A stretch of 46,821 nucleotides of DNA from contig DPYO01000052.1 in assembly GCA_003535775.1 (NCBI GenBank), positions 1 through 46,821 on the forward strand, read 5' to 3'. A program made the position numbers and the translations under genes. Below the pieces are notes generated by a model. That model did no database searches. It was not told where the DNA came from and saw only the letters and a program-made list of their open reading frames with translations. This DNA comes from Fidelibacterota bacterium (GTDB lineage Bacteria; Fidelibacterota; Marinisomatia; Marinisomatales; UBA8229). Numbering within the stretch: position 1 is the stretch's first letter; each line of letters opens with the position of its first letter. Of the stretch, positions 12,647 through 43,248 are shown piece after piece.

Positions 12647-12648
12647 TG

Positions 12649-12678
12649 AAAAACCCCGATAGTTTTCTTGCCTCGGGG
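12649..12678 (-). terminator. intrinsic terminator hairpin forming the riboswitch expression platform
   Basis: The minus strand reads CCCCGA-ggcaagaaaacta-TCGGGG-TTTTT-CA-ATG. This is a 6-bp GC-rich stem and a U5 tract ending 2 nt before the receptor start codon. Confidence 0.55.
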
Positions 12679-12754
12679 TCATGAGATTGGATTAAATACT
12701 TGGAGATATTCAAACTATATCATGATTTTTATCCCGAAAGCCAGTTGATATTTA

Positions 12755-12905
12755 GACCGTTGGGCAGATATCCTGACTTGCACATCACCGGATCCCTTCC
12801 GCCTTCTCATACCGATTTCAATCAGTACAATGGTTTTATGGATGGTTCCTTCGTGCTCACAGTAGCGGGAACTGTGCCCGATTTTACGGGACTTCCCTGC
12901 CTTAA
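12755..12905 (-). promoter_or_regulatory. cobalamin (B12) riboswitch aptamer
   Basis: The minus strand reads AAGGCAGGGAAGUCCCGUAAAAUCGGGCACAGUUCCCGCUACUGUGAGC...GAGAAGGCGG...AGUCAGGAUAUCUGCC. This matches the conserved GGGAA / GUAAAAUC / CCCGCxACUGU core and the B12 box (AGUCAGGAxAxCUGCC). GGCAG...CUGCC closes P1. It lies 5' of a TonB-dependent receptor. Confidence 0.85.
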
Positions 12906-13053
12906 TTGTCTTATTGATTTAAAATAGCATCAAAAGATTAAAGCCCTTCATGATAAAGAACAATAATTATTTGGATCAAATACCATCTTGTTAATGAAGA
13001 ACATGTCAGAATAAATTCTTTACTGAAATTATTTAATAACTGTTTCATTAACT

Positions 13054-17478: not shown

Positions 17479-17557
17479 TTTTTTTTTCTAAATGATAATG
17501 TGTAGGTTATCACATTGACAAAAGTTAATTTTATCGGCTTATTGAGAGTTGAATATC

Positions 17558-20304: not shown

Positions 20305-21288
20305 GTGAAGTCATTTCATTTAATTAAATCTTTCTCCCTCCAGAAACTTTCCTTACGTCTTGGTGCACTGGGTATGGCTATCGTGCTCTGGCTTTTTGTC
20401 ATGAGCGACAAGGAATCTTCACTCATTATGAAAATTCCCCTGGTAGTTCGAAATATCAGCGCCCAAAAAGCACTAAAGGAGGAAGTCCCTGAATTTGCTC
20501 AAGTTCGATTAATTGGTACTGGAAATGAATTACTAAAAGCATATCTTCTAAAAAACTTTTTTGAGAACTTTAAACTCATCTTGGACTTGGATCATATTTC
20601 AGAAGAGTATGATTTTATCCTGAATGATTACTATTCGAAATATCCGCAGAAAGTTGTAATTCCCCCCTCCTTCCACCTAAAATTTGTCGAAATTGTTTAT
20701 CCAAGGGAAGTTCACATTAGTTTGGACGAGTATCTTGTAAAGTCTGTTCCAATTACCCCACAAATTATAGTTCAACCAATACCTGGATACATTCAAGTAG
20801 GAGATATAAAAATGATTCCATCTTCTGTAAATGTAGCTGGCCCAAATATATTAACGAAGGAAATCACTGAAGTTTTGACAGCAACAGACACTCTGAAAAA
20901 TATCGGGCATTTTACAAACCGAAAGATCTCTCTGAATAAATCTAACCGACTCATCGAATATTCACTGAATGAAATTAATTACCAGGTAGATATTCAAGAA
21001 ATCAGTGAGCGGATAATCAGTGAAGTTCAGATCCAGATAGTCAATGTACCGGATGAATTTCGGGTATTTGTTAATCCACAAACTGTATCTTTAACTATCT
21101 TTGGAGGTGTAAATCGAATTGCCGAAATATACCCTGAAGACATATTCATATACATTGACTTTGAGAAACAATGGGCTCCTAGATCACAGTTTTTTGAACC
21201 TGTCGTGGTGACACCTAACGACATTTTGGAGTGGAAAAATTTATCGCCTAGAAACGTGGAATTAGTCGTTACGAAAGGGACAAGTTGA
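20305..21288 (+). CDS. YbbR-domain protein (CdaR-like)
   Basis: GTG start, an N-terminal TM helix ('LGALGMAIVLWLFVM'), then repeated YbbR-like modules ('IPLVVRNISAQ', 'VPITPQIIVQPIPGY', 'VQIQIVNVPDEF'). Confidence 0.55.
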   Translation: MKSFHLIKSFSLQKLSLRLGALGMAIVLWLFVMSDKESSLIMKIPLVVRNISAQKALKEEVPEFAQVRLIGTGNELLKAYLLKNFFENFKLILDLDHISEEYDFILNDYYSKYPQKVVIPPSFHLKFVEIVYPREVHISLDEYLVKSVPITPQIIVQPIPGYIQVGDIKMIPSSVNVAGPNILTKEITEVLTATDTLKNIGHFTNRKISLNKSNRLIEYSLNEINYQVDIQEISERIISEVQIQIVNVPDEFRVFVNPQTVSLTIFGGVNRIAEIYPEDIFIYIDFEKQWAPRSQFFEPVVVTPNDILEWKNLSPRNVELVVTKGTS

Positions 21289-22280
21289 ACATACTTGGAG
21301 TTGAAACCTCCTGTGACGAGACAGCTGCTGCCGTGTGTGCAAATGGCTCTATTCTGTCAAATATAATTAGTTCACAAAAGATCCACCAATCTTTTGGTGG
21401 TGTTGTTCCAGAACTGGCATCCAGGGAACATGAACGTCTCTTAAACTCACTGGTATTTCAAGCCATTGAAGAAGCTGGAATCTCATTAAGCAGTTTAGAA
21501 GGTATAGCAGTTACAAAAGGGCCCGGTTTGGCGGGAACATTATTGGCTGGCGTTTGTTTTTCAAAAGGATTGGCGCAAGGATTGAGGATTCCTGTCATTG
21601 GGATTAATCATCTTGAAGCCCATATCTTTGCGAGTTTTCTGGAAAATCCAAATTTAACATTTCCATTCGTATGTCTTTTGGTTTCCGGAGGACATACTCA
21701 GGTGTGGCTCATAAATGAAATAGATAACTATGAATTAATGGGAGAAACCAGAGACGACGCTGCCGGGGAGGCTTTTGATAAAGGAGCAAGAATCTTAGGC
21801 CTGGGATATCCGGGAGGACCTGAGATCGAAAAATTAGCACGTAACGGAAATCCAAAAACCATAGATTTCCCGAAGTCATTCATGAAAACCAATGCAATTG
21901 AATTCAGTTTCAGTGGTCTGAAGACATCCTTGCTTTATTATATGGATCACTTTGATGAATCTGATGGCACTATAAGCAGAGAAGATGTTGCCGCCAGCTA
22001 TCAGAATGCAATCATTGAAGTATTGATTCATAAATTGAAACAAACTTTGGAAATTACACATGTCAAAACATGTGTAATAGCTGGTGGTGTGGCTGCAAAT
22101 AATCAACTAAGACAGAAGGCTCATCAGATGCTGCCCGAAATTTCATTGAGTTTCCCTGGCTTGTTATATTGTACTGATAACGCAGCTATGGTTGCTTTTT
22201 TGGGAGAACTGAAATTGAAAGCAGGATATACTTCCCCCATAAATTTTGGGGTCAAGCCTAATTTACAACTCCAAGTCTAA
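21285..22280 (+). CDS. tsaD: tRNA N6-adenosine threonylcarbamoyltransferase
   Basis: 'ILGVETSCDETAAAV', 'GINHLEAHI', 'LLVSGGHTQ', 'DDAAGEAFDKGAR' and 'IAGGVAAN'. Confidence 0.93.
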   Translation: MNILGVETSCDETAAAVCANGSILSNIISSQKIHQSFGGVVPELASREHERLLNSLVFQAIEEAGISLSSLEGIAVTKGPGLAGTLLAGVCFSKGLAQGLRIPVIGINHLEAHIFASFLENPNLTFPFVCLLVSGGHTQVWLINEIDNYELMGETRDDAAGEAFDKGARILGLGYPGGPEIEKLARNGNPKTIDFPKSFMKTNAIEFSFSGLKTSLLYYMDHFDESDGTISREDVAASYQNAIIEVLIHKLKQTLEITHVKTCVIAGGVAANNQLRQKAHQMLPEISLSFPGLLYCTDNAAMVAFLGELKLKAGYTSPINFGVKPNLQLQV

Positions 22281-22348: not shown

Positions 22349-24457
22349 ATGTCTCTTGAATTTCTTCGACCCCCCGATCTTTGGTTTTGGGGATTGTTAT
22401 TAGGGGTATGTTCCTTCTCTCTTTGGAGTATTTTTAAACTCTGGCCTATTCATCAAGTGAGAATTCCTGTGCTAATCAGAATTGGTTTATTCAGTTTGCT
22501 TTTATTCAGTCTCCTGCAACCAAAAATCACCCGGGAAACATCGAAGGAATTTCCCCTTAAGTGGCATGTTTATACTGATAATTCGATGAGTATGGGATAC
22601 CACCAGGCCTATTCATTAACAACTCTGAACGAAGAAATAAAAGAATTTTTGAAGAAAATAGAAAACAAAGGAGTTATGATTGATCGTTTTCATTTTTCAA
22701 ATGAGGTAATCCATACCGACTTGTATGAACCATTAAATGCAGGAGGTTCCTCAACTGATCTTGGAATCGTTTTGAATTCAATAAAAGAGGAAGAGAAAGA
22801 TAATCTTGCAGGAGTAATTTTATTTACAGATGGCCAAATCACCCATGGCTTAGACCCAGTGCAAACTTCATCGGAAATCCATGTACCAATTCACATCATT
22901 GGCGTTGGAGAGAACACACCTCTTGTGGATGTTGCCATAAAATCTATAGATGTACCAACCGTTGCTATTAAAGGTGAGGATGTAGAAGCAACAGTGGTTG
23001 TTGTAGCAACAGGTATTATTGCAAATGAAGGAATAAACATAACTTTATCGAAAAAGAAGAAAATAATTGGCTCACGGTTCATAAAAATCCAGGGTGACGG
23101 TGTACAGTCAGATGTACATTTTCAATTTAAACCAGATGACTTAGGGGAAATTACATACCAAGCTCAGGTTTCTTCTCTTGAGAATGAAATAAATGTCCAA
23201 AATAACCGCCAATCCTTTCATTTGACAATCCTGAAAAATAGATACCGGGTCGCTTTACTTACCGGTGCACCGAATTATAATACTTCTGTGATAAAAATGA
23301 TGATGAATAATCAACCACGAGTTAAGATTGATCATTTTATTTTTATCAATGATTCATTCCAGCCAGCTATAAAAAATTTCTGGGAGACTTCATACGATCT
23401 AATCGTCCTTGATAATTATCCTATTCAATCTATTTCTTCACAATGGCAGCGGTTTTTTGCGAAAAAGATTGTGGCTCAAAAAACAGCTTTGGCATGGATT
23501 ATTGGTCCAAGCGTAGATCCATTATCTGCAAAATCTTTTTTTCCCTTTTTTCATTTAAAATGGTTAGAAACAAAAGTTGATGATGAAAAATATTACCAAT
23601 GGTCATTCAATGAAAGAATATTGAATTATCCAATTTTCCCACAAAATGAGGTTCCTCTTAATTCCATTGATCAGACCGAACTTCCGCCTCTAAAACCTGG
23701 ACTTCAGGTTTCTAGTACAAAAAAAATGATCCAATCATTGGCAGACTTAATACCATCCCAACAAATTCCGGTACTCCTTATTGGAGAAGTGGAATCCTTA
23801 CGGACAGTTGTTTGGACAACTCCGGATTTTTATACACTTTATTATAAGTTAACAGGTACCAGAAGATCCGAAATGTTTGCAGGGATCTGGAATGGAATTT
23901 TTGGGTGGCTTATGAGGACCACGGGAGATAACGATATGTATTTTCGATTGGATAAAGATTTATACCAGCAGGGAGAATTAATAAAAGTAATGGGAAATAA
24001 AATCGGGCAAGCATCCCCTGCATCCCACGCTGCAATTACCTTACAGCACGATGGAAATACAATTAATTCAACAGAATTGAGATATAACCCAACTTTTCAG
24101 CGGTGGGAAGGGCAATTATGGGCATCCAAACCAGGTACCTATGACTACGAAATTATTTTTCAAAATGAAAATGCCACTTCTTCCCAAAAAGGGGTATTTA
24201 TTATAAAAGAAAGTCAGATTGAACTTAATAAAGTCTTTCTCAATGATAACCTATTAAGAAAAATCTCATTGAAAACGGGTGGAAATTATTTTCACTGGGA
24301 TTCACGAAATGAACTTATTGACCACATTGAACAACGAACAATTACAAAACGAAAAATGGTTTATATAGAACCACATAATGAATGGTGGATATTAATTGGA
24401 TTTATTGTTCTGTTAACTATTGAGTGGAGCCTGCGTCGAAGAGCAGGCCTAATGTAA
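22349..24457 (+). CDS. large membrane protein with BatA-type N-terminal double-TM anchor and vWA/GATase-like central region
   Basis: 'LEFLRPPDLWFWGLLL' followed by two TM helices resembles the aerotolerance-regulator N-terminal domain. It also has 'GVILFTDGQ' and a C-terminal TM helix ('WWILIGFIVLLTIEWSLRRR'). The function is unknown. Confidence 0.45.
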   Translation: MSLEFLRPPDLWFWGLLLGVCSFSLWSIFKLWPIHQVRIPVLIRIGLFSLLLFSLLQPKITRETSKEFPLKWHVYTDNSMSMGYHQAYSLTTLNEEIKEFLKKIENKGVMIDRFHFSNEVIHTDLYEPLNAGGSSTDLGIVLNSIKEEEKDNLAGVILFTDGQITHGLDPVQTSSEIHVPIHIIGVGENTPLVDVAIKSIDVPTVAIKGEDVEATVVVVATGIIANEGINITLSKKKKIIGSRFIKIQGDGVQSDVHFQFKPDDLGEITYQAQVSSLENEINVQNNRQSFHLTILKNRYRVALLTGAPNYNTSVIKMMMNNQPRVKIDHFIFINDSFQPAIKNFWETSYDLIVLDNYPIQSISSQWQRFFAKKIVAQKTALAWIIGPSVDPLSAKSFFPFFHLKWLETKVDDEKYYQWSFNERILNYPIFPQNEVPLNSIDQTELPPLKPGLQVSSTKKMIQSLADLIPSQQIPVLLIGEVESLRTVVWTTPDFYTLYYKLTGTRRSEMFAGIWNGIFGWLMRTTGDNDMYFRLDKDLYQQGELIKVMGNKIGQASPASHAAITLQHDGNTINSTELRYNPTFQRWEGQLWASKPGTYDYEIIFQNENATSSQKGVFIIKESQIELNKVFLNDNLLRKISLKTGGNYFHWDSRNELIDHIEQRTITKRKMVYIEPHNEWWILIGFIVLLTIEWSLRRRAGLM

Positions 24458-26403: not shown

Positions 26404-27464
26404 AAACCGTTTATTTTGTCACCGGAGGATGTGGTTTTATCGGAGCAAATTTTATCCAGTATTTATTGAATAAGACAAAACCCAATAGTGTCGTCAATCT
26501 AGATAAACTGACCTATGCAGGAAATCAGAAAAATCTTGCAGATTTTGAACAGGATCCCCGCTATATATTTGTGCATGGTGATATCTGCGATGCGGAATTG
26601 GTTTCAAAGTTATTCACCGAATATCAGCCGAATTATATTGTCAATTTTGCTGCTGAAAGTCATGTTGACAGGTCAATAGATGGGCCGGCAGAGTTCATAC
26701 AAACCAATATTGTCGGTACATCTGTTCTCTTGCAGGAAGCACTGAAATATTATTCAACTTTGAAGGGGAAAGAAAGTGAACGTTTCCGGTTTCATCATGT
26801 TTCGACGGATGAAGTTTTTGGAAGTTTGAGTGAATCAGGATTTTTCACGGAAGAAACCCCTTATGATCCCAGTTCCCCCTATTCCGCATCAAAAGCTTCT
26901 TCAGATCACCTTATCCGTGCGTGGCATCGAACATTTTACCTTCCGGTATTGATTTCTAACTGCTCAAATAATTATGGCCCATATCAATTCCCGGAAAAAC
27001 TGATTCCCTTAATGATTCTGAACTGTCTCGAAGAAAAACCATTACCTGTTTATGGGACAGGAGAAAACATTCGAGACTGGCTGTACGTGGAAGATCACTG
27101 TGATGCTATTTATACAATCTTACAAAAGGGTACTATTGGGGAAACATACAATGTTGGCGGTAATAATGAAATCAAAAACATCCAAATTGTAGAAGTGATC
27201 TGTGATATTCTGAATGATATTCATCCGGCAGGCTCAGGTAAATCGTACCATGAATTAATTAATTTCGTTAAAGACAGGCCTGGACATGACTTTCGGTATG
27301 CAATCGATGCATCAAAGTTAAAGAAAGAAATTGGATGGGAACCCAAAGAATCCTTTAATACAGGAATTCAAAAAACTATTGAGTGGTATCTGAAAAATGA
27401 AGAGTGGTGGAAAACAATTCAAGAGGATACGTACAAACAAGAGAGGCTTGGTATCTCTAATTAA
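26400..27464 (+). CDS. rfbB: dTDP-glucose 4,6-dehydratase
   Basis: 'VTGGCGFIGANF', 'AAESHVDRSI', 'YSASKASSDH' (YxxxK) and 'RPGHDFRYAID'. Confidence 0.92.
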   Translation: MKTVYFVTGGCGFIGANFIQYLLNKTKPNSVVNLDKLTYAGNQKNLADFEQDPRYIFVHGDICDAELVSKLFTEYQPNYIVNFAAESHVDRSIDGPAEFIQTNIVGTSVLLQEALKYYSTLKGKESERFRFHHVSTDEVFGSLSESGFFTEETPYDPSSPYSASKASSDHLIRAWHRTFYLPVLISNCSNNYGPYQFPEKLIPLMILNCLEEKPLPVYGTGENIRDWLYVEDHCDAIYTILQKGTIGETYNVGGNNEIKNIQIVEVICDILNDIHPAGSGKSYHELINFVKDRPGHDFRYAIDASKLKKEIGWEPKESFNTGIQKTIEWYLKNEEWWKTIQEDTYKQERLGISN

Positions 27465-27487
27465 ACAAATGTAACCATCCTAATTAA

Positions 27488-30400
27488 TTACCACTCATCT
27501 TCTTCATCCTCAACAATAAAGCCGTACCCTTCTGTCTCCAAGTGGCGTTTGACGATCGCGGATACATCCTGCTGCCCTTCAATCCCCCACAAGTAATCAC
27601 GTAGTGCCTTCAGCATTGCTTCGGAATCCGGATGCAGTTTAGCTACATCCTTTCCCCAGGCTGATTTCACATCTTCTATCTGTTCATCAATTGGCACGTA
27701 AGGTGTCGGCATCTTTGTTCCAGGTATAATTGCTTGAGGATCACGGAGCCAATCCAGAACCCATTCTGAACGCAACCGTTCTTTTGTTAATGATAAATCT
27801 GGTGCCCATGTAAGAGCTGCCTGTTTCGGTTTGGTGGAACCGTAAAAGTGACAGTTATTACAAGCACCCATATCCTGAATAACATCACCTGCCCTGTACG
27901 AGGAGGAAGACTTAGATATTTGATGGGGGTTCTCATACGCTAATGTCTGACCGTCCTTAATCTGAAAATATTTGATGATTTTATTCCAATCTTTATCCGA
28001 AATCACTGCAAAAGTGGGCATCCGTACTTGGAGGTTAGGACGAATCATGGTTGGATGGTTTAAGAAATTAAATAACCACTCCGGTTGGACCTTTCTTCCT
28101 TCTGTGTCCAATATCGGCGGAGCAAAAGATTGGATTAAACTAGGATCCTCTGCAGAACTTGCACCTGCGATATCCCCTAACCAGGTGGCAATTGTAGGCT
28201 GGATTGCACCGCCTTTATCATCAATTATATGGCAACCCAAACAATTATAAATTCGAATTAATTCTTCTCCTGCTTCAATTGCAAGGTTTCTCTCATTTCT
28301 TTCCGGTATTTTCGATTCGGGAATTTCATCTTTTACAAAACCAATCAAAGCTGTAACAATTGCTGCAATTTCATCATCCGTAAAATCATAATTAGGCATG
28401 CGTAATTTTTCATCTGGCAATTTTACTTTTCCCCGGTCAAAAATTCGTGGTTCCTTTAATTTCTGCGTAAACCAAGCTTCCCTTGAATGGGGTATTTCAA
28501 TAAATCCAAAATCAAGTTTTTCAACCAGTTTACTACCCTCAAATGTTAATTCTGTACCTATCGGCTTGTCATTTTCAAAGCCCGGGATGTCATGGCAGCC
28601 AAAACATCCATACATTCGTATTAATTTTTCACCATTATAATCCAGTTTTTCCTCAAAAGTCATTTCCCCTCTTTTTATCCGGGAATCTTTATCTGATTTC
28701 ATTTTCTTAAGAAAATCAAGGGTGATTTCATCAAGAACCTTCTCATTTATACTGGGAATATTCTTTTCGGAAAATCCTTCTTTTGTTAATGAGGATAGAT
28801 ACGAAGCAATATCTGCAGCTTCCTGATTGGTAAGTCGAAGGTTTGGCATTCTGGTTGAAGAAGAATACTTTTGTGGGTCTTTTAACCAGGAATAAATCCA
28901 ATTGAGGGAGGTTTTTGACCCTGTTCCTACCAGGTTAGGTCCTTGTTCTCTTCTAAGTGTTTCTATTGAGGTTGTTTGATTTAATGGATCTGGGGCAATC
29001 TGGTGGCAACCAAAACAGCCTAAAGATGAGACAAGTAGTTCTCCATTCTTCCCATCACCTTTTATGGGAACAGAATCCATTCCATATTCTGAACTATTTT
29101 TAAACAAATAATGAACGATCGCATGGATTTCCTGATTTGTACGATTTTGTGAGTCTTCATCACTGTTATTCGACTGGTTAAAGAAACGAGGCATCCAGGT
29201 ATTATGCCGAAATGATTTGGGATCGCTGATCCAATTATACGCCCACTCCTTAGTCACTTTTGAGGCAACCTTCTCTAAGCTTGGTCCTGCCTTTGGACGA
29301 TCTTTATATTTATCAATTTTATGGCAGCCAAAACATCCTGAACGTTCAATCAAGTTTAATCCCAGATTTAACTTGTCTGCATATTTTACAGAGGTCTCAT
29401 TTGAATGGCATTTAAAACAACTTGCTTCTACATATTGCATTGGAAGCATTGGAGTATCCCAATGATGTAATTGATGCCAGTTATATTTTTCCTCCCATTC
29501 CTTTGCTTGTTCATGCGATGATGGTACATGAACTGTAGAAATAAAATCAGTTCCACGCCCGCGGCCACCATGGCAGCTAGTACATCCAAATTCTTCAACT
29601 GGGTGGGGTGACGTACTTGATAAATATAAATCTAATCTTGGATGTGCTTTAAATGGCTGGATATCACTTTCAAATCCTTGATCAAGAATTCCTTTATGAC
29701 ACGTCATACATCGGTCTACTTTTGGAACTCTAGTAAAATTAACATTATCAGTTATATCTTTAACAACAACCTGTTCTACTTTATAGTATGGAGATAAAAA
29801 ATCAACAAAAGGTAAATCTCTGATTATATTTCCGATCTTGTTTGAAAAATCCATATGAACAGGGTCGAGATTTGTCAATTTTCTTTCAATAAGAGTTGCT
29901 TCTTTTGTCAGCTTTCCTTTTTCTGCTTTAACCTCATTTATTTCTTTACTGAATTGTTTAACCAAAACAGATTGTTCATCATAATCATCTTGTGCAGCTT
30001 CCAATACCAATTGAATTTCCAACATCTCAGTTTGGATTTTTCCCAACTTTTCTTCCAACTCATTTGCTTCTGATAAATGATGTGTACCTGCCTCTTCATA
30101 TTCATATTTAAGAGCATCATATTTCGCCTTTGAAAAGTTGAATTCCTGCTGTACTCTGTATAATACTGCATCCTTTTTTAATAATTCTTCTTCAGTCCGG
30201 GAAATCGCTTCAGATTTTTCGTTATATAATTCCTTAAAATTAGTTAGTCTTTTTTGAATGTCCTTGTATTCAGCAGTCCCTTCATATAATTTAGATGCCT
30301 TCTCAAACTCTTCATTTGTTTTCTCAATTTGAAGTGCTCTGAAATCACGCTGGTAATCTTTCCATGATCTAGAATAATCATCAACAAAAGACCATACCAA

Positions 30401-30496
30401 AACAGCAAAAAAGATTAAACTGGAAATGGCAAACCAGATATTTAAATTTGAAATATTGTATAGTCTCTCTTGAAAGTTCTCTGGTTTTTCTGCCAT
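27488..30496 (-). CDS. membrane-anchored octaheme c-type cytochrome with N-terminal coiled-coil stalk
   Basis: 1002 aa with one N-terminal TM helix (about residues 19-37) and about 170 aa of heptad-like charged sequence. Eight CxxCH motifs follow: CMTCH, CTSCH, CFKCH, CFGCH x3, CLGCH and CNNCH. The last five each sit in a repeated class-I-like module followed by a '(R)MP' putative Met ligand. It is the last gene of the Rieske/cyt b operon. Confidence 0.85.
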   Translation of the reverse strand: MAEKPENFQERLYNISNLNIWFAISSLIFFAVLVWSFVDDYSRSWKDYQRDFRALQIEKTNEEFEKASKLYEGTAEYKDIQKRLTNFKELYNEKSEAISRTEEELLKKDAVLYRVQQEFNFSKAKYDALKYEYEEAGTHHLSEANELEEKLGKIQTEMLEIQLVLEAAQDDYDEQSVLVKQFSKEINEVKAEKGKLTKEATLIERKLTNLDPVHMDFSNKIGNIIRDLPFVDFLSPYYKVEQVVVKDITDNVNFTRVPKVDRCMTCHKGILDQGFESDIQPFKAHPRLDLYLSSTSPHPVEEFGCTSCHGGRGRGTDFISTVHVPSSHEQAKEWEEKYNWHQLHHWDTPMLPMQYVEASCFKCHSNETSVKYADKLNLGLNLIERSGCFGCHKIDKYKDRPKAGPSLEKVASKVTKEWAYNWISDPKSFRHNTWMPRFFNQSNNSDEDSQNRTNQEIHAIVHYLFKNSSEYGMDSVPIKGDGKNGELLVSSLGCFGCHQIAPDPLNQTTSIETLRREQGPNLVGTGSKTSLNWIYSWLKDPQKYSSSTRMPNLRLTNQEAADIASYLSSLTKEGFSEKNIPSINEKVLDEITLDFLKKMKSDKDSRIKRGEMTFEEKLDYNGEKLIRMYGCFGCHDIPGFENDKPIGTELTFEGSKLVEKLDFGFIEIPHSREAWFTQKLKEPRIFDRGKVKLPDEKLRMPNYDFTDDEIAAIVTALIGFVKDEIPESKIPERNERNLAIEAGEELIRIYNCLGCHIIDDKGGAIQPTIATWLGDIAGASSAEDPSLIQSFAPPILDTEGRKVQPEWLFNFLNHPTMIRPNLQVRMPTFAVISDKDWNKIIKYFQIKDGQTLAYENPHQISKSSSSYRAGDVIQDMGACNNCHFYGSTKPKQAALTWAPDLSLTKERLRSEWVLDWLRDPQAIIPGTKMPTPYVPIDEQIEDVKSAWGKDVAKLHPDSEAMLKALRDYLWGIEGQQDVSAIVKRHLETEGYGFIVEDEEDEW

Positions 30497-30508
30497 ATAT
30501 AAGTAAGT

Positions 30509-31624
30509 TTATATATTGAAAAAATACTCTGGAATTGCCACAATATATTTCAAATTAAACATCCATCTGAGATACATTTTTATAGGTAGACTTATTGCAA
30601 ATAAAATTAAAATAATAAAAACACTATAGCGGAGGTTGCCCAACTTCTGATGCAGTTTATTTAACATGCTTTTTGCTAACAATGGGGGTAAAACCATAAA
30701 GTATCCTAAGATCAATAAAAATCCCCACATCTCCCGGATTAAAATATTATCAGGAAGCCCCGAACGGAACCAAATTATATAAATGTATTCTGATAGATTT
30801 ATATTTGTAAGCGGTGCCAATTTGTGAATATCCCAATACTCAAATGGACCGAAAAAATTCCAGTTTGGTCCTCTTAAAAATGTACCAACTATAATTAGAA
30901 GAATCCAAAGTACCAGCCATCCAAACATAAATAAGGATACAGCCATTTTTCTCTGTTTGAAACTATAGTATCCAACTCCTTCCTTATTGATATCTAGATA
31001 AGGAATTGCCATAAGACCAATAATCATGATGGTAGGAAAAAGGACTCCTGCAATCCATGGATCAAAGTACACTAACATTTCCTGCAATCCTAAAAAATAC
31101 CAGGGTGCTTTGGAAGGATTTGGAGACAGGGTGGGATTTGCAGGCTGTTCTAAGGGTGCTGGTAGAGCAATTGACCACACTACTAATAAGACTGTACACA
31201 ACACCAAAGCAATGAGTTCTATGTAAACTAGATCTGGCCAGGTTAATACCTTATCGTCTGGGTCATGATATTCATTTACCTTTTCATTATTATCAATCCG
31301 CTTATCATTTTCAGTGGCTTGTTTCATACTCAGCCATGTAAAAAACGCAACCAGAAAAATTAATCCAACAATAGGTACGTTATCTGGCTTCAAAACAATA
31401 AGTTTGAAATTCTCATCTGTTAATCCAAAAAGAAAAAAGGTTAACAATCCTAATAATATCAGGATTCCACCTTTATTTGTCCAGATAAGATCTAACTTGA
31501 ATTTCTTGTTCCATTTGTAGAACCAATCATTTGGTGGAAAAATGAAAAAGAAAGTTAAGAGAATAAAGGTTAACATAACGGTTGGGGAGGAAACCGTATT
31601 TATTATATGTTTTATTAACTCCAC
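30509..31624 (-). CDS. cytochrome b C-terminal domain / subunit IV-like protein, enlarged (371 aa)
   Basis: GTG start 21 nt after the cytochrome b stop. It carries the quinol-site 'PNPSKAPWYFLGLQEMLVYF' (PEWY-type motif) and multiple extra TM helices on both sides of the motif. Confidence 0.8.
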   Translation of the reverse strand: MELIKHIINTVSSPTVMLTFILLTFFFIFPPNDWFYKWNKKFKLDLIWTNKGGILILLGLLTFFLFGLTDENFKLIVLKPDNVPIVGLIFLVAFFTWLSMKQATENDKRIDNNEKVNEYHDPDDKVLTWPDLVYIELIALVLCTVLLVVWSIALPAPLEQPANPTLSPNPSKAPWYFLGLQEMLVYFDPWIAGVLFPTIMIIGLMAIPYLDINKEGVGYYSFKQRKMAVSLFMFGWLVLWILLIIVGTFLRGPNWNFFGPFEYWDIHKLAPLTNINLSEYIYIIWFRSGLPDNILIREMWGFLLILGYFMVLPPLLAKSMLNKLHQKLGNLRYSVFIILILFAISLPIKMYLRWMFNLKYIVAIPEYFFNI

Positions 31625-31645
31625 TGGTATAAGTATCTCATCAAT

Positions 31646-32449
31646 TTAAAGCGGTGTAGTAATTCCACCATCTTTTCGAATTCTCCAGAAATGTATTGCC
31701 ATAAAAATTATGATAATAAACGGAAAACCAATACAATGCAGTACATAGAATCGTAATAGAGCAGCCTCACCTACAAAACGACCTCCAAGTAATGCAAATC
31801 TCACATCACTTCCTGCATGAACCAGGTTAATATCCCCAATTGAAAGTAAAGCCGCACCAGGTCCTTCGTGACCTAAAAATGGAGTTGCTCTTGCCATATT
31901 TGTTCCCACAGTGATTGCCCATATTGCTAATTGATCCCAGGGTAAAAGATAACCGGTAAAACTTAGTAACAATGTTAAAACGAGCAGAATAACTCCAACC
32001 ATCCAATTGAACTCCCGTCGGTGGCTTATACGATCCAGTCATGAAAACTCTGAACATATGAATCCAAACTGTTATGACCATAAGATGAGCTGCCCAGCGG
32101 TGGATTTCACGCATAATTCCTAATGGAACCTGTTCACCCAAATCCATAATATCTGTATAAGCATATTCAACAGTAGGCCTATAATAAAACATGAGGAGAA
32201 TTCCTGTGATAGTCAATACACAAAAAATATAAAAAGACAATCCCCCAGCACACCATGTGTATTTCAATCTTAACAGCATGACGCGGCATCCTTACCGGAT
32301 GAAGATGGAGGAATACACTATTCAATACAGAAAACATGCGACCACGCCTGTTTACTTGGTACTCCTGATCTAATTATAGATTTCCAAACCTGAGAATCTC
32401 CAAATCTGGAAATAAAGCCTCCCTTTTTTCCCTTTTGATCTTTAGCCAT
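31646..32449 (-). pseudogene. cytochrome b (b6-type, N-terminal four-helix heme domain) interrupted by three +1 frame changes; pseudogene, assembly artefact or recoded gene
   Basis: The conserved sequence is spread over three frames. Segment 1 is MAKDQKGKKGGFISRFGDSQVWKSIIRSGVPSK. Segment 2 is RRGRMFSVLNSVFLHLHPVRMPRHAVK. Segment 3 is LKYTWCAGGLSF...[28 protein letters not shown]. Segment 4 is [12 protein letters not shown]...[15 protein letters not shown]...[26 protein letters not shown]. The junctions lie near 32350, 32268 and 32018. Track ORFs 31827..32279 and 31646..32002 are segments 3 and 4. Confidence 0.8.
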
Positions 32450-32491
32450 ACTTTTTATAATCCTGTTATTGTTACTTAATTTATAAAATCC

Positions 32492-33214
32492 CTAAACAAT
32501 AAGATATGATTCCGGATCTTTCCATTGTCCTTTTTCGTAAGCATATTTCTTCGTTTTATCAATGAGAATCTGACCATCATTTGCTAATGATATTCTAAAC
32601 CGTTCTAAGGGACGTGGTGCAGGACCCTCAAAATTGATGCCGGTTTTTCGGAACCCACTTCCATGGCATGGACATTTAAATTTACTCTCATTTTTTAACC
32701 AATTCGGAGTACACCCCAGGTGTGTGCAAACTGTTGATAAAGCATAAATTTGTTCTGTTGATCTGATTATCCATACACCGAATTTATTTTTTAAATTTGT
32801 AGACACTTCACCAATTGTATAGTCATCAGGATAGCCTGCTTTAAAAGTCTGTTTTGGCTCAAATAAAACATTTGGAAACATAAATCGTAGAATTATTCCA
32901 AAAAAAGTTCCGGTAGCAGCAGTGAATGCCAACCAAGCCAGGGTAAGCCAGGAAAAAAAAGAGCGTCTTTTTATTGGTTCTACTAAAATTGATCCTTTAC
33001 CAATGGAGGCACGTTTTTGAGAAGGATTTTTTTCCGGTTCGCCTTTAGGTACCTCTGGTTTTTTTGAATCCAGGTTCTGTTCATCTACAGAATCCATTTG
33101 GGGATTAGCACTATCACTACTAATTTCATCGGTCTGTCTAGAACTTTGTTCATTTTCTTCAGTATTATTTACATCATTTGGTATGTTTTTATGTTTATCC
33201 ATAGGAAACATCAT
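32492..33214 (-). CDS. Rieske [2Fe-2S] iron-sulfur subunit
   Basis: Cluster boxes 'CTHLGC' and 'CPCHGSGF', a twin-arginine-like 'KRRSFFSWL', then a TM helix. It has a long polar N-terminal extension. Confidence 0.9.
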   Translation of the reverse strand: MMFPMDKHKNIPNDVNNTEENEQSSRQTDEISSDSANPQMDSVDEQNLDSKKPEVPKGEPEKNPSQKRASIGKGSILVEPIKRRSFFSWLTLAWLAFTAATGTFFGIILRFMFPNVLFEPKQTFKAGYPDDYTIGEVSTNLKNKFGVWIIRSTEQIYALSTVCTHLGCTPNWLKNESKFKCPCHGSGFRKTGINFEGPAPRPLERFRISLANDGQILIDKTKKYAYEKGQWKDPESYLIV

Positions 33215-34100
33215 ATTCCATCCACTGGTTAGAAGAACTCGTATTTATTTTTAACACATCCATTGCTGTTTTTCGAATATTAATATTATTTTCCTCATCA
33301 GCCAGTTCTTGAATCTTACTATTAATGATGGGGTCATTTAGAAGTATTCCTGCTCTGATTGCAATAATTCGAGCCTGATCCCGTTCCCGTATATCCACCT
33401 CTGGGAAATTAATGAAAAATTTGCCTTCGATCAATTTTAATATTATTTCACGGCCAGAATCATCTCCAATTTTAGCAAGAGATATAGCTGCATCCCATCT
33501 AATATTTGGTTGACTATCATATAATGATTTTTTTAAATCCTCTATTACTTTTGGATCAGCAATATTTCCGAAAGCAATAACAGTTTGCAAGCGAATGTTT
33601 TCATCTTCATGATCTAAAAATAGTTTCAGTTTTTCGACTGCTTTCCCAGATTTTAAAAGACCCAGCGCTCTTATGATAGCAGGAATATTTTCAGTATTTT
33701 CATTTTCAATTTCAGAAAGTAACGGATCGATATATCTGCTATTACCAGTTCTTCCCATTGCCAGGGCAAGATATTGTCGTACTCGATTATCATCATGTTT
33801 GGACTGTTTAAATATATTGATCATCTCTGAAATAAACCGATCATCCTTTGAGATTTCATCGGAAATGTACAAAACCTTTGAAAGTTCAAAGGCAGATTGC
33901 CAGCGTTTAGTAGCGCCACCAATTTTGATATCATTCAGATAATCATAGGGGGTAGCATCCTCATAGGTCAGAAGACTAAACAAACTATAAATAAACACCA
34001 AAGATGCGGCTACAAGAAAAGGAATAATCACAAATGAGTGAAACAATATCTTAAAAATGGATTTTTCCGGTTCGTTCGGGATTGGGATTTGATCTGTCAT
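33195..34100 (-). CDS. HEAT-repeat (PBS-lyase-type) protein with N-terminal TM anchor
   Basis: TM helix 'FVIIPFLVAASLVFIYSLFSLL' followed by repeated 'xxVRxxAxxALGxxGxxxAxxxL' HEAT-like units ('NRVRQYLALAMGRTG', 'IPAIIRALGLL', 'ENIRLQTVIAFGNI', 'PNIRWDAAISLAKIG'). It overlaps the Rieske start. Confidence 0.7.
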   Translation of the reverse strand: MTDQIPIPNEPEKSIFKILFHSFVIIPFLVAASLVFIYSLFSLLTYEDATPYDYLNDIKIGGATKRWQSAFELSKVLYISDEISKDDRFISEMINIFKQSKHDDNRVRQYLALAMGRTGNSRYIDPLLSEIENENTENIPAIIRALGLLKSGKAVEKLKLFLDHEDENIRLQTVIAFGNIADPKVIEDLKKSLYDSQPNIRWDAAISLAKIGDDSGREIILKLIEGKFFINFPEVDIRERDQARIIAIRAGILLNDPIINSKIQELADEENNINIRKTAMDVLKINTSSSNQWMEYDVSYG

Positions 34101-34182
34101 TAATTACCTAAACCACAAATTGTATCAAGAATCAAATTAAAACTATCTCTAAAAAATTTACAAGAGCAAAAACGGGAACTTA

Positions 34183-35082
34183 TCACCCTAGTTTTTCCCT
34201 TTTTCGAAGGTACTGACTGAGAGCAATATCCAAATCTTGATCTGTAAACAAAGGAATATAATCTATTAATCGTTTTCGGCATTGCTTTCGGTATTTATCC
34301 TGAAATTCAAGCATCAAGTCCTTGTAAGAATTACGAATTTGCCACGGCTCTGTAGTAACCAGTTCCCCTGTTTCCATATCCTTAAACCGGGTGCGGGTGT
34401 TAAAATTGAAGTTCAATTCCTGACGATCAAGAATGTGAAAGACAATTACCTCCTGTTTATTGTATCTGAAATGTTTTAATCCCCCTATAATTGCATCAAA
34501 ATCATCGAAAAGGTCAGAGATCAGAATAACAAGTCCACGTTTCTTGATCCGATCAGCCATTTCGTGTAATACATTTCCAATCTGTGTATCTTCACCAGGA
34601 TTTATCTGATCCAGTTGGGAAAAAATGGTATTTAGATGACTGGATGTTGAGCGAGGAGGAATAAATGACTGGATTTTTTTATCAAATAGAATGAGACCGA
34701 TCCCATCTTTTTGATTAAGCATCAGATAAGAAAGGGCTGCAGTAAGGTAACTTGCATATTCCAATTTGGATATGTTTTTGCTACGGTAAGTCATGGATTT
34801 ACTGATATCCATAATCAGGTACGAACGAAGATTGGTCTCTTCTTCATATTGCTTTACATAATACCGATCGGTTTTTCCATAAAGTTTCCAATCGATATGC
34901 CGAATCTCATCTCCCGGGCCATATGCCCTATGTTCCGCAAACTCTACACTAAATCCATGGTAGGGGCTTTTATGAAGTCCGATGATATATCCTTCAACTA
35001 CAAGTCTTGCTCTTAGTGACATATTACCCAGCTTTGCTGCCACCTCAGGATGAAGGTATTTTCTTTTATCTACAGCGGGCAA
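34183..35082 (-). CDS. DUF58 domain protein (vWA-like partner of MoxR)
   Basis: 'HKSPYHGFSVEFAEHRAYGPGDEIRHIDWKLYGKTDRYYVKQYEEE' is the DUF58 signature, with the vWA-like 'LIMDISKSM'. It begins 3 nt after the MoxR stop. Confidence 0.85.
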   Translation of the reverse strand: MPAVDKRKYLHPEVAAKLGNMSLRARLVVEGYIIGLHKSPYHGFSVEFAEHRAYGPGDEIRHIDWKLYGKTDRYYVKQYEEETNLRSYLIMDISKSMTYRSKNISKLEYASYLTAALSYLMLNQKDGIGLILFDKKIQSFIPPRSTSSHLNTIFSQLDQINPGEDTQIGNVLHEMADRIKKRGLVILISDLFDDFDAIIGGLKHFRYNKQEVIVFHILDRQELNFNFNTRTRFKDMETGELVTTEPWQIRNSYKDLMLEFQDKYRKQCRKRLIDYIPLFTDQDLDIALSQYLRKREKLG

Positions 35083-35085
35083 AAC

Positions 35086-36105
35086 TTAACTCTTTGCTTC
35101 CAACAATTTTACCAGGATATCATCGGTACTTAATCCTTCTGCTTCAGCATTAAAATTGGGGAGAATTCGATGCCTCATAACAGGGAAAACCAAATCCTTA
35201 ATATCATCAATATTTGGTGTTGGGCGACCATCCAAGACCGCTTTTGCTTTTGCACCAAGGATAAGATATTGAGAGGCCCTTGGTCCTGCTCCCCATTCAA
35301 TCCAGTCATTGATAAAATCAGGTGCAACTGCGGATCCTGGCCGGGTTGATGCTACTAAATCTACAGCATATTCCACTACATTTTCCGCCACAGGAACCCT
35401 GCGGATAAGATCTTGATAAGAAAGAAGATCGTTCCTGCCTATAACTTTTTTCAGTGTTTCAGAAGTTTGTCCGGTTGTGGTTTGTACAATGGCTATTTCT
35501 TCTGATCGATCAGGATAATTGATTTTGATATGAAACATAAACCTGTCCAACTGAGCCTCAGGAAGGGGGTAGGTCCCCTCCTGTTCAATAGGGTTCTGGG
35601 TTGCAAGTACAAAAAAGGGTTCCTCTAAAACATAGGAGGTACCTGATGCAGTAACCTTGTGCTCCTCCATCGCTTCCAACAGGGCAGCCTGTGTTTTTGG
35701 AGGTGTGCGGTTAATCTCGTCTGCCAGGATGATATTTCCAAAGATCGGCCCCTTAAAAAATCGAAACCCTCTTTTCCCTGTTGATTGATCTTCATCAATG
35801 ACCTCTGTTCCAGTAATGTCGCTAGGCATAAGATCGGGAGTGAACTGGATCCGCTTGAATTTCAATTCCAAAAGTTCAGCAATTGATTTGATCATCAGTG
35901 TTTTCGCCAAGCCCGGTACACCAACCAGGAGAGTGTGTCCTTTGCAGAATAAAGCAATTAGTATATGATCCAGAACGCTGACTTGACCAATAATTGATTT
36001 CCCAATTTCTGAAAGAAAATGGGTGCGGGCTTCAGTCAATTTTTCAAGTAAGTGTAAATCTTTTTGTTCTTTCATATTATTCCCTGTTTTGATATTTACA
36101 TTCAA
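35086..36105 (-). CDS. MoxR-family AAA+ ATPase
   Basis: Walker A 'GVPGLAKT', Walker B 'ILADEINR', 'VLATQNPIEQEGTYPLPEAQLDRF' and 'GAGPRASQ'. Confidence 0.92.
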   Translation of the reverse strand: MNVNIKTGNNMKEQKDLHLLEKLTEARTHFLSEIGKSIIGQVSVLDHILIALFCKGHTLLVGVPGLAKTLMIKSIAELLELKFKRIQFTPDLMPSDITGTEVIDEDQSTGKRGFRFFKGPIFGNIILADEINRTPPKTQAALLEAMEEHKVTASGTSYVLEEPFFVLATQNPIEQEGTYPLPEAQLDRFMFHIKINYPDRSEEIAIVQTTTGQTSETLKKVIGRNDLLSYQDLIRRVPVAENVVEYAVDLVASTRPGSAVAPDFINDWIEWGAGPRASQYLILGAKAKAVLDGRPTPNIDDIKDLVFPVMRHRILPNFNAEAEGLSTDDILVKLLEAKS

Positions 36106-36188
36106 AAACTAAAGAGGGAAAATTACGAGCCCCTTGTCCCTTTTACAATCTTATTGTCTTGCTCTCCCAATAAAGATTTGAGAAATTC

Positions 36189-37253
36189 ATGTTCATGTTC
36201 AACGTTAAAACAAATGAAAAAGTTCACTGGATAGGCTTGACCCGTAATGAAATGAGGGAACATGTTGCAAAGCTGGGACAACCACATTTCCGAGCAGATC
36301 AAATTTACAACTGGATTTATTCCGGGAAAATTAAATCATTTCAATCCATGGCAAATATTCCCAAATCCTTCCGCACAGTTTTGGGCCAAACATCGGGGAT
36401 TCATCCCCTCTCTTTAGTTAAAATAACCGGTGAGGATTCCTCGCTTACCAGGAAATTTCTCTTCAGGCTGTCCACCGGTGAGATGATTGAATCCGTTTTA
36501 ATGCAGGAAGGAAACCGAATAACTGTATGCTTATCTTCCCAGGTGGGGTGTGCAATGGATTGCGATTTCTGTGCTACAGCGAAAATGGGATTCCAAAAAA
36601 ATCTCTCTGTTGGGGAAATTGTAGATCAATTTCTATTTTTGCAGCAAGAATCTGAAAAAAAAATTACCAATGTTGTATTTATGGGAATGGGAGAACCTTT
36701 CCTGAATTATGCCCGAGTGATAAAAGCTGCTGATCTGTTAAATCAATCAGATGGAATTGATTTAGGCGCACGCAGGATTACAATCTCGACTGTGGGGATT
36801 ATTCCAAGAATAAAGCAGTTTTCCAAAGAGGGTCATCGCTATAAGTTAGCTATCAGCTTGAATGGAACAACCCAGAATCAACGATTACAAACAATGCCTG
36901 CGGCAAAAAAATATCCCATTCATAAGCTGATAGATGCGGCAAAAAACTACTATGAAACAGCAAAACGGTTTCCCACTTTCGAATATGTACTGATGAACAA
37001 TCTTAATGATAGAACTACTGATGCTGAAAATCTCATTAAATTGATTGGAAATCTCCCTTGTAAAGTGAATCTAATTCCCTACAATGAAATTGGAGGAACT
37101 TATAAGCGTCCATCACATGACCGGTTAACACGTTTTATCAATGCACTGAAAAATGTACCGTTTACCGTGACTGTTCGTTGGAGCAATGGTACTGAAATTG
37201 ATGCTGGTTGCGGCCAATTAGCCGTGAATGCAGGAGGTAGTGTTCAATCATAA
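36189..37253 (+). CDS. rlmN: 23S rRNA (adenine2503-C2)-methyltransferase, radical SAM
   Basis: 'FRADQIYNWIY', the radical-SAM 'CAMDCDFCAT', 'GMGEPFLNY' and the C-terminal 'DAGCGQL'. Confidence 0.92.
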   Translation: MFMFNVKTNEKVHWIGLTRNEMREHVAKLGQPHFRADQIYNWIYSGKIKSFQSMANIPKSFRTVLGQTSGIHPLSLVKITGEDSSLTRKFLFRLSTGEMIESVLMQEGNRITVCLSSQVGCAMDCDFCATAKMGFQKNLSVGEIVDQFLFLQQESEKKITNVVFMGMGEPFLNYARVIKAADLLNQSDGIDLGARRITISTVGIIPRIKQFSKEGHRYKLAISLNGTTQNQRLQTMPAAKKYPIHKLIDAAKNYYETAKRFPTFEYVLMNNLNDRTTDAENLIKLIGNLPCKVNLIPYNEIGGTYKRPSHDRLTRFINALKNVPFTVTVRWSNGTEIDAGCGQLAVNAGGSVQS

Positions 37254-43120: not shown

Positions 43121-43234
43121 TTTTGGTGTCTATGGCGATTGGGCAGGCCTCTTACCATTCCGAATAGAGAAGTTAAGCCAACTTGCACAGATGGTACTGC
43201 CCTTTTGAGAGTGGGAGAGCATGTGGATGCCACT
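43121..43234 (+). rRNA. rrf: 5S ribosomal RNA (unlinked to 23S)
   Basis: UGGUGUC...GAUGCCA forms helix I. The conserved blocks CCAUUCCGAAUAGAGAAGUUAAGCC, GCACAGAUGGUACUGC and GAGAGCAUGUGG align with E. coli 5S (CCGAACUCAGAAGUGAAAC, GCGCCGAUGGUAGUG, GAGAGUAGG). A T5 run follows. Confidence 0.85.
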
Positions 43235-43248
43235 TTTTATACCTAGAT

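Follow-up and report, generated by a model that had tools for sequence, protein, structure and literature searches.

Two probably independent modules side by side: a HEAT-led Rieske/cytochrome b operon and a MoxR-DUF58 pair in a Fidelibacterota contig

Does a run of seven closely packed genes on one strand correspond to one functional unit? The question is raised by contig DPYO01000052.1 of a Fidelibacterota bacterium (assembly GCA_003535775.1), considered here over its whole length of 46,821 nucleotides (the window). Exact sequence matches and the names of homologues assign the window to marine Candidatus Marinimicrobia/Neomarinimicrobiota (SAR406). At 27488..36105, seven co-oriented minus-strand genes, with gaps of 3, 82, -20, 42, 21 and 12 nt, encode in this order a MoxR-type AAA+ ATPase, a DUF58 protein, a membrane-anchored HEAT-repeat protein (hereafter HEAT), a Rieske protein, a cytochrome b, a subunit-IV-like protein and an octaheme cytochrome c (Table 1). 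The layout and spacing given in the initial annotation are reproduced exactly, all six gaps included, and Pfam backs each of its domain calls. Its functional proposal, that the first three proteins serve the respiratory complex encoded by the four others, calls for more discussion. We consider it probable that two independently conserved modules stand side by side, namely a HEAT-led operon for a b6-like complex of the so-called APWY clade and an unrelated MoxR-DUF58 neighbour.

The HEAT-led respiratory operon

Two surveys, comprising ~160 loci altogether, bear on the limits of the operon. In the first, anchored on HEAT, an alignment of 21 family members was used as query against one genome per GTDB species, and the six-frame open reading frames (ORFs) of the best 80 loci, taken with 10-kb flanks, were scored with phmmer. 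The second was performed in reverse, from subunit IV, and brought 80 further loci from metagenome contigs. Among the best 80 loci of the HEAT survey, the genes of HEAT, the Rieske protein, cytochrome b, subunit IV and the octaheme cytochrome c follow each other in the same order and orientation at every sufficiently long locus. The labels of these loci are Omnitrophota, Planctomycetales, Calditrichaceae, Hydrogenedentota, Spirochaetia, Desulfobacterales, Fidelibacterota and Marinimicrobia. Over both surveys, HEAT is found directly 5′ of the Rieske gene in 102 of the 116 loci having at least 1.3 kb of upstream DNA. The median lower bound of the gap between these two genes is 6 nt (n = 114) and gaps between core subunits are of 15-22 nt; HEAT is packed against the Rieske gene as closely as the core subunits are packed among themselves. 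The five genes constitute one conserved unit across many phyla, and the tie between HEAT and the Rieske/cytochrome b complex, already suspected in the initial annotation, is strongly supported by synteny.

Upstream of HEAT, the genes found elsewhere are those of an F1Fo ATP synthase operon (~40 loci), SecA, an M61 peptidase, a galactokinase and others, as read by eye with no profile search. It might be objected that HEAT is itself a mere passenger upstream of the Rieske gene, having no functional tie to the complex. Indeed, 14 related loci lack the HEAT gene, and a functional tie is argued from synteny. However, order, orientation and near-zero spacing are kept in the 102 loci while the genes further upstream vary, and the transmembrane helix of HEAT is itself strongly conserved. 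We regard a passenger as very unlikely. It is credible, on the basis of gene order and conservation, that HEAT would be dedicated to the complex, as an accessory subunit or as a factor in its assembly. Credibly too, APWY-clade b6-like complexes may include HEAT as a dedicated component that had escaped recognition, its gene heading their operon in at least 8 phylum-level lineages.

In ~40 of the loci L011-L086, from MAGs labelled Omnitrophota and Planctomycetales, the reading by eye gives the a, b, delta, alpha, gamma, beta and epsilon subunits of the F1Fo ATP synthase at ~0.2-8 kb 5′ of HEAT, in a run that ends directly before HEAT; the respiratory operon may be transcribed there together with that of the ATP synthase. 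On the other side, ~45 loci of the same series carry two more conserved co-oriented genes 0.2-1.5 kb 3′ of the octaheme cytochrome c gene, namely those of a polytopic membrane protein of ~270-310 amino acids and of a small membrane protein rich in Cys (zinc-ribbon-like). In 19 loci, a gene resembling that of cytochrome oxidase subunit I is observed at ~+9.5 kb. None of these three genes is seen downstream of the operon in the window.

Which complex does the operon encode? Among solved structures, the best matches of the cytochrome b are cytochromes b6 of b6f complexes: 1vf5 (E = 9e-41), 2zt9 and 1q90 (E ~1e-40). The histidines in the segments IHRW, WIHMF, VLHC and AIHF align with the four heme ligands of b6 in 1vf5, and the cysteine of YTWCAGG aligns with Cys35, found in the segment IFYCLGG of the same structure. 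In b6, Cys35 binds heme ci (also called cn) through one thioether bond. All 71 informative sequences from the first survey have the corresponding CxGG cysteine, and so do, in the second one, all the full-length sequences that were checked, those of the HEAT-less subclade described below included. The CxGG motif of the window cytochrome b may be considered a putative heme ci/cn site.

As in b6f complexes, the cytochrome b is split, with the Pfam domains Cytochrome_B and Cytochrom_B_C on separate genes. Subunit IV carries the Qo motif APWY, as SKAPWYF or AKAPWYF, in 72/72 loci; its identity across phyla is 58-93% and its NCBIfam matches, to ExtQ and to b6f subunit IV, are weak. Its GTG start codon at 31624 is backed by an N-terminus, MExIKHIIN, recovered across phyla. 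The Rieske protein has the cluster motif CTHLGC...CPCH, which is present in 82/82 homologues, preceded by a long hydrophilic N-terminal extension with a KRRSFF twin-arginine-like motif before the transmembrane helix; its nearest NCBIfam models are those of b6f PetC, below cut-offs. As to the octaheme cytochrome c, it starts with a transmembrane helix and a predicted coiled coil. Four of its CXXCH motifs are close-set (residues 263-392) and four are distributed in class-I-like domains (494, 631, 752 and 879); Pfam matches are to Cytochrom_C, Cytochrome_CBB3, c7 and c3, and eight hemes are predicted in 64 of 68 homologues.

On these sequence criteria, the complex is to be classified as a member of the described APWY clade, with a b6-type cytochrome b. 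This clade is known from several unrelated phyla, and WCMGG has been designated in it as a putative heme-ci motif; in 2014, no member had been characterised in vitro or in vivo (Kao & Hunte 2014, PMC4122944). Short cytochromes b bearing CxGG correspond to subfamilies G, L and M of a later classification (Dibrova et al. 2017, PMC5600118). The window operon has in common with the clade as described a cytochrome b divided between a four-helix b6-like protein and a distinct subunit IV, the APWY Qo motif, the W-C-M/A-G-G putative heme-ci motif and the occurrence in many unrelated non-photosynthetic phyla (PMC4122944; PMC5600118). In contrast, no HEAT-repeat gene is mentioned in these two papers (the word HEAT is absent from PMC5600118) and Marinimicrobia and Omnitrophota are not named; moreover, the window has a subunit IV enlarged to 371 amino acids and, as c-type partner, an octaheme protein of 1002 amino acids. 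The respiratory operon adds a conserved extra component, HEAT, to a known but uncharacterised clade. APWY-clade Rieske/cytochrome b complexes occur widely among uncultured bacteria of marine, groundwater and soil environments. The Rieske/cytochrome b genes reported in the genome paper of Caldithrix abyssi have a different arrangement, inside a Nap cluster.

The b6f complex of cyanobacteria and chloroplasts (1VF5, 1Q90) shares with the window operon the Rieske, b6 and subunit IV architecture, as well as the four histidines and Cys35. However, the window operon has no cytochrome f, the octaheme cytochrome c occurring in its place, and its Qo motif is APWY instead of PEWY. No PetG/L/M/N or CCB genes are seen at the window locus, the host is not photosynthetic and the HEAT protein is additional.

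From these elements, a scheme may be proposed. The respiratory module (27488..34100) would comprise five genes, forming an operon for a Rieske/cytochrome b complex that oxidises quinol and belongs to the b6-like APWY clade; its products would be a Tat-type Rieske protein, a four-helix cytochrome b, an enlarged subunit IV, a membrane-anchored octaheme cytochrome c and HEAT. As regards the electron path, the direction of operation and the role of HEAT, we infer the following, partly from knowledge of the protein families. The octaheme cytochrome c would replace cytochrome c1 or f as acceptor of the electrons of the Rieske cluster and would pass them to periplasmic or terminal acceptors. HEAT would either belong to the complex as a stoichiometric accessory subunit or serve its assembly as a dedicated factor, with its conserved transmembrane helix keeping it attached to the membrane core.

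The MoxR-DUF58 pair and the limit of the operon

The two genes upstream of HEAT encode a typical pair. In the ATPase, PF07726 (AAA_3) is matched with 210 bits, against 55 bits for AAA_5, and AAA_lid_2 with 51 bits; Walker motifs, GVPGLAKT and ILADEINR, are visible in the translation. The CbbQ_C domain, which is a mark of NorQ/CbbQ-type ATPases, gave no match in the Pfam scan of this protein. On near-identical contigs, which come from Tara Oceans and JGI marine metagenomes, the ATPase is annotated as starting 10 codons further in (329 instead of 339 amino acids), and its true start is probably 36075. The partner protein, the gene of which begins 3 nt after that of the ATPase, matches PF01882 (DUF58) with 163.5 bits and VWA_2 with 38.7 bits.

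Among 89 informative loci, MoxR-DUF58 lies directly 5′ of HEAT in 3 (L007-L009), all from Marinimicrobia, and the HEAT proteins of these loci are at least 78% identical to that of the window. In other Marinimicrobia (L075, L077, L084, L085), the respiratory operon adjoins other genes. Conversely, DUF58 orthologues with 72-77% identity are abundant in Marinimicrobia, and the neighbourhood of two of them was inspected at four loci (L167-L170). There, the left side of the window arrangement is kept, with genes for gamma-glutamyltranspeptidase (GGT) and an M20 peptidase, and rlmN divergent from MoxR-DUF58. DUF58 is followed by a hairpin and by a TPR gene in convergent orientation, beyond which PfkB and others are found; the genes called within 7 kb of the pair include neither HEAT nor Rieske. 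Because the synteny on the rlmN side persists at loci without HEAT or Rieske genes, the MoxR-DUF58 pair is best described, from gene order, as a stand-alone unit of the rlmN-side neighbourhood, not part of the respiratory operon. A rough estimate supports chance: if a genome of ~2,500 genes holds 1-2 of these pairs, a single fortuitous juxtaposition in ~100 lineages would be unremarkable. The pair (34183..36105) would most likely be a general MoxR-type remodelling system, beside which the respiratory operon would have landed in the ancestor of a narrow clade of marine Marinimicrobia (SAR406).

The proposal made in the initial annotation was different: MoxR, DUF58 and HEAT would form one dedicated AAA+/vWA/HEAT chaperone module, assembling or regulating the Rieske/cytochrome b complex, at least in this clade. 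MoxR-family ATPases with vWA partners do act on metalloenzymes or respiratory complexes, as NorQ/D, CoxD/E and RavA-ViaA. All three genes point the same way and stand close together, MoxR 3 nt before DUF58 and DUF58 82 nt before HEAT; no terminator was detected in the 82-nt spacer, and the four distinct close lineages (the L001-L006 group, L007, L008 and L009) share the arrangement. In addition, an unrelated locus, L160, has a MoxR-DUF58 pair within ~3 kb of the respiratory cassette. Nevertheless, adjacency at 3/89 loci within one narrow clade amounts to a single evolutionary event, the pair has its own conserved synteny with rlmN, M20 and GGT, also at loci devoid of HEAT or Rieske genes, and in all remaining lineages, other Marinimicrobia included, the cassette stands beside the ATP synthase, SecA or other genes. 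Furthermore, the ATPase belongs to MoxR-proper (AAA_3), without CbbQ_C. The initial annotation had itself named a lack of conserved synteny in relatives as what would refute its proposal. On this count, HEAT passes and MoxR-DUF58 fails, which refutes the proposal as far as the pair is concerned, and such a module appears very unlikely to us.

Comparison with known AAA+/vWA systems goes in the same direction. With NorQ/NorD, CbbQ/CbbO, CoxD/CoxE and RavA/ViaA, the window shares an AAA+ protein and a vWA-type partner next to genes for a metalloenzyme or a respiratory complex. However, the adjacency is confined to one narrow clade (3/89), the partner is a DUF58 protein, no CbbQ_C was detected and the conserved neighbours of the pair are housekeeping genes. 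In the Bat/aerotolerance operons of Bacteroides and Leptospira, MoxR (AAA_3) is likewise followed immediately by DUF58; the difference is that no batA/batB-like genes for vWA membrane proteins follow the pair in the window or in its relatives, the latter having the convergent TPR gene. A search with PADLOC returned marginal generic matches only, with no affiliation to a defence system. A possible second MoxR-DUF58 pair at 20305..22280 was discarded, as BLASTP and Pfam identify an unknown protein and TsaD there.

The initial annotation also placed a BatA-like membrane protein at 22349..24457. This protein of 702 amino acids, encoded 10 kb away from the pair, has no significant Pfam or NCBIfam match, and in particular none to a BatA or VWA profile, so that the label is to be taken as putative. 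It is nonetheless plausible: the N- and C-termini are hydrophobic, and the motif DNSMS (DxSxS, MIDAS-like) can be recognised by eye. Close relatives also have this protein conserved next to the cassette, and it may be a vWA membrane protein of divergent sequence.

Several observations have to be set against the two-module reading. Firstly, the DUF58-HEAT junction is not obviously punctuated in the clade of the window. A terminator and promoter consensus scan of 27300..36400 found none in the 82-nt spacer, its overall counts being no better than in shuffled sequence; the RNA folding energy of the spacer is no better than that of shuffles either (z = 0.84). Most of the spacer sequence is retained in L007 and L009; in L008, the spacer is expanded. 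It has no recognisable terminator in the window clade, whereas cassette-less relatives have a clear hairpin after DUF58. Read-through from DUF58 to HEAT, even a lineage-specific functional link, is possible in this clade. Secondly, there is the distant, HEAT-less locus L160, where the cassette is followed at ~3 kb, on its own strand, by a MoxR-DUF58 pair; we treat this proximity as a coincidence. Thirdly, the cytochrome b of the window, as given, cannot be translated into a full-length protein (see below). Fourthly, it is by synteny that a physical association of HEAT with the complex may be argued. Finally, the 14 loci with the same type of cytochrome b and subunit IV but without upstream HEAT form a sister subclade. 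Because of this subclade, HEAT has to be seen, as far as gene content tells, as dispensable for an APWY-type enzyme or as encoded elsewhere in these genomes.

At L160, an ORF of 795 amino acids is located between the cassette and the MoxR-DUF58 pair (L160:8923-13362). This locus is the only other one with such a pair near a cassette; L153 shows a lone weak DUF58 match at its edge. More generally, the HEAT-less loci (L131, L137-L140, L147, L152, L156, L157, L159 and L160 among them) have a much larger cytochrome c gene, of ~3-5 kb where complete and with ORFs reaching ~3.6-5 kb at the loci named, and, in most cases, a Rieske protein with a long Ala/Pro-rich N-terminal extension, which at several loci repeats motifs resembling S(V/I)(A/E)(D/E)ILA(A/M)AR. 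No alternative conserved upstream gene was found in this subclade.

With these reservations, the boundary of the operon can be corrected: HEAT is the near-constant first gene of one large APWY branch and MoxR-DUF58 stands outside. The correction avoids the propagation of a false annotation of MoxR as a chaperone for bc complexes.

Table 1. Features of the seven-gene region and of the diverged patch, with positions in the window.
Feature	Position	Strand	Basis
MoxR-type AAA+ ATPase (MoxR-proper, AAA_3)	35086..36105	-	Pfam AAA_3 210 bits and AAA_lid_2
DUF58 (vWA-like) partner of MoxR	34183..35082	-	Pfam DUF58 163.5 bits, VWA_2 38.7 bits
DUF58-HEAT spacer, 82 nt, junction of the two modules	34101..34182	-	Gap measurement
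Membrane-anchored HEAT_PBS-repeat protein, 301 amino acids, first gene of the respiratory operon	33195..34100	-	Pfam HEAT_2, HEAT_PBS
Rieske [2Fe-2S] protein, 240 amino acids	32492..33214	-	Pfam Rieske; 20-nt overlap with HEAT gene
Cytochrome b6-type four-helix cytochrome b, interrupted in the window	31646..32449	-	Pfam Cytochrome_B
Extended subunit-IV-like protein, 371 amino acids	30509..31624	-	Pfam Cytochrom_B_C
Membrane-anchored octaheme cytochrome c, 1002 amino acids	27488..30496	-	Eight CXXCH motifs
Diverged patch, 1.16 kb (C-terminal half of Rieske, spacer, most of cytochrome b)	31733..32894	.	~13% divergence

The HEAT protein and the attachment of heme ci

HEAT belongs to a sharply defined family of ~290 residues, with full-length homologues 44-51% identical across phyla. 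The AlphaFold2 model obtained from the family alignment (mean pLDDT 85.6) shows one transmembrane helix (residues 15-45) followed by an alpha-solenoid. In the helix, H21, S22, F23 and P27 (His-Ser-Phe...Pro) are nearly invariant across phyla. Such a signature is unusual in a simple membrane anchor, and the conservation of the helix therefore argues for specific intramembrane contacts. The flanking lysines and arginines (2.1 N-terminal and 1.6 C-terminal to the helix) leave the orientation ambiguous with respect to the positive-inside rule. A full-text literature search, the coverage of which is incomplete, returned no paper in which Rieske/cytochrome b operons are connected with HEAT or PBS-lyase-type proteins.

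What could be the function of the solenoid? With Foldseek, the top matches of the model are mostly designed alphaRep proteins; among the PDB matches listed, CpcE (5n3u_A) has the highest query-normalised TM-score, 0.60. In NCBIfam, the models matched are NblB, CpcE and CpeY alone, with 35.3, 26 and 24.1 bits against cut-offs of 300, 330 and 600, respectively. CpcE and CpcF are HEAT_PBS solenoids which join a tetrapyrrole to one cysteine. With CpcE/CpcF and NblB, HEAT shares the HEAT_PBS repeats and the resemblances just mentioned; it differs by its N-terminal membrane anchor, by scores far under the cut-offs, by a context without phycobiliproteins and by the fact that no catalytic motif was identified in it.

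It is tempting to imagine that HEAT is the missing maturation factor which attaches or inserts heme ci at the CxGG cysteine in non-cyanobacterial lineages, in the manner of a membrane-tethered E/F-type (CpcE/CpcF) lyase. The cysteine aligned to Cys35 of b6 is indeed present in every cytochrome b of the family, the repeats are of the HEAT_PBS type, the NCBIfam matches and the rank of CpcE point to the same proteins, and the HEAT gene is closely packed with the other genes of the operon. According to Dibrova et al. (2017, PMC5600118), oxygenic phototrophs alone have the CCB system and the insertion of heme cn elsewhere "remains a mystery", which also counts in favour of the idea. None of CCB1-4 was noticed among the window genes examined. 

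Several facts nevertheless argue against a lyase. The scores with the lyase models are far under the cut-offs and the top structural matches are generic designed proteins. The HEAT-less sister subclade retains the CxGG cysteine, which rules out a link between the presence of HEAT and that of the cysteine. To our knowledge, Bacillus binds heme ci without a HEAT-type gene in qcrABC. Moreover, heme ci being on the cytoplasmic side, the lyase reading needs a cytoplasmic solenoid, and the flanking charges (2.1 vs 1.6) are ambiguous as to the orientation in the membrane. For these reasons, we hold a lyase to be unlikely, and an accessory subunit or an assembly factor of the complex, without further specification, is the role retained here. 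If true, the lyase reading would bear on how heme ci is attached outside oxygenic phototrophs, a question raised by Dibrova et al. (2017, PMC5600118).

The interrupted cytochrome b gene and other features of the window

The cytochrome b had been described as one gene in the initial annotation. This description has to be abandoned for the window sequence, where 31646..32449 is spread over three reading frames: alignment with relatives reveals 1-nt insertions at 32354, 32273 and 32017, because of which there is no single ORF. The three insertions are absent from every relative examined (L004, L007, L008, L009, L171 and L172), and the gene is intact in L001-L009. Compared with L004, all 150 substitutions (~13%) and seven indel positions are located within the patch 31733..32894, the window being identical to L004 across the rest of 27400..36200. 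Over 27400..36200, six marine contigs match the window exactly outside the patch, and the cytochrome b is intact in all six.

Within the patch, 58 of the 79 nucleotide differences in the Rieske part affect third codon positions. Deletion of the three inserted bases yields a complete cytochrome b ORF of 266 amino acids, which differs from that of L004 by 61 nucleotides, 54 of them at third codon positions, and by 5 residues. Because of this third-position bias and of the intact corrected ORF, the patch is interpreted as a real diverged allele shaped by purifying selection, with three frameshifts superimposed. It has the appearance of a catalytic-core allele (C-terminal half of the Rieske protein and cytochrome b) that was imported or co-assembled. 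In exact look-ups, no record was found of the window Rieske allele or of a 150-amino-acid cytochrome b fragment; the C-terminal cytochrome b fragment of 118 amino acids matches exactly in two contigs, neither of which has the insertions of the window.

Two explanations of the frameshifts can be envisaged. An independent public scaffold from the same population (L171:2767-2866) has a 100-N gap with duplicated flanks inside the cytochrome b gene; because this assembly breaks within the same gene, it suggests that cytochrome b is a strain-variable spot which assembles badly. Most likely, the three frameshifts are assembly or consensus errors in such a strain-variable patch. A very recent inactivation is a less likely origin. 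In the latter case, the operon would be decaying in the strain of the window, cytochrome b would be a true pseudogene and the complex would not be made, and the functional reading would then apply to the relatives only. That the three frameshifting insertions are found in the window alone, and that neither the Rieske allele nor the 150-amino-acid fragment has another record, would fit such a decay. However, the corrected gene bears a strong signature of purifying selection (54/61 differences at third positions; 5 residues), the remaining genes of the operon are intact and identical on six independent contigs, and the insertions are grouped in a strain-variable patch where another assembly breaks too, which fits consensus or assembly error. 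Decay of the operon is considered improbable.

Other features of the window may be mentioned. A 5S rRNA gene (RF00001, 50 bits) is found at 43122..43235 on the plus strand, between two minus-strand ORFs annotated as SDF-family and PALP-family on near-identical contigs; over its whole length, the window gave no match to 16S or 23S rRNA and no tRNA gene. At 12746..12963, on the minus strand, a cobalamin riboswitch (Rfam RF00174, 70.7 bits) is located upstream of an ORF of 694 amino acids (10598..12682). Finally, a single plus-strand ORF of 872 amino acids, at 17549..20167, comprises a cytidylate kinase domain and six S1 RNA-binding domains, and looks like a fusion of Cmk and ribosomal protein S1.

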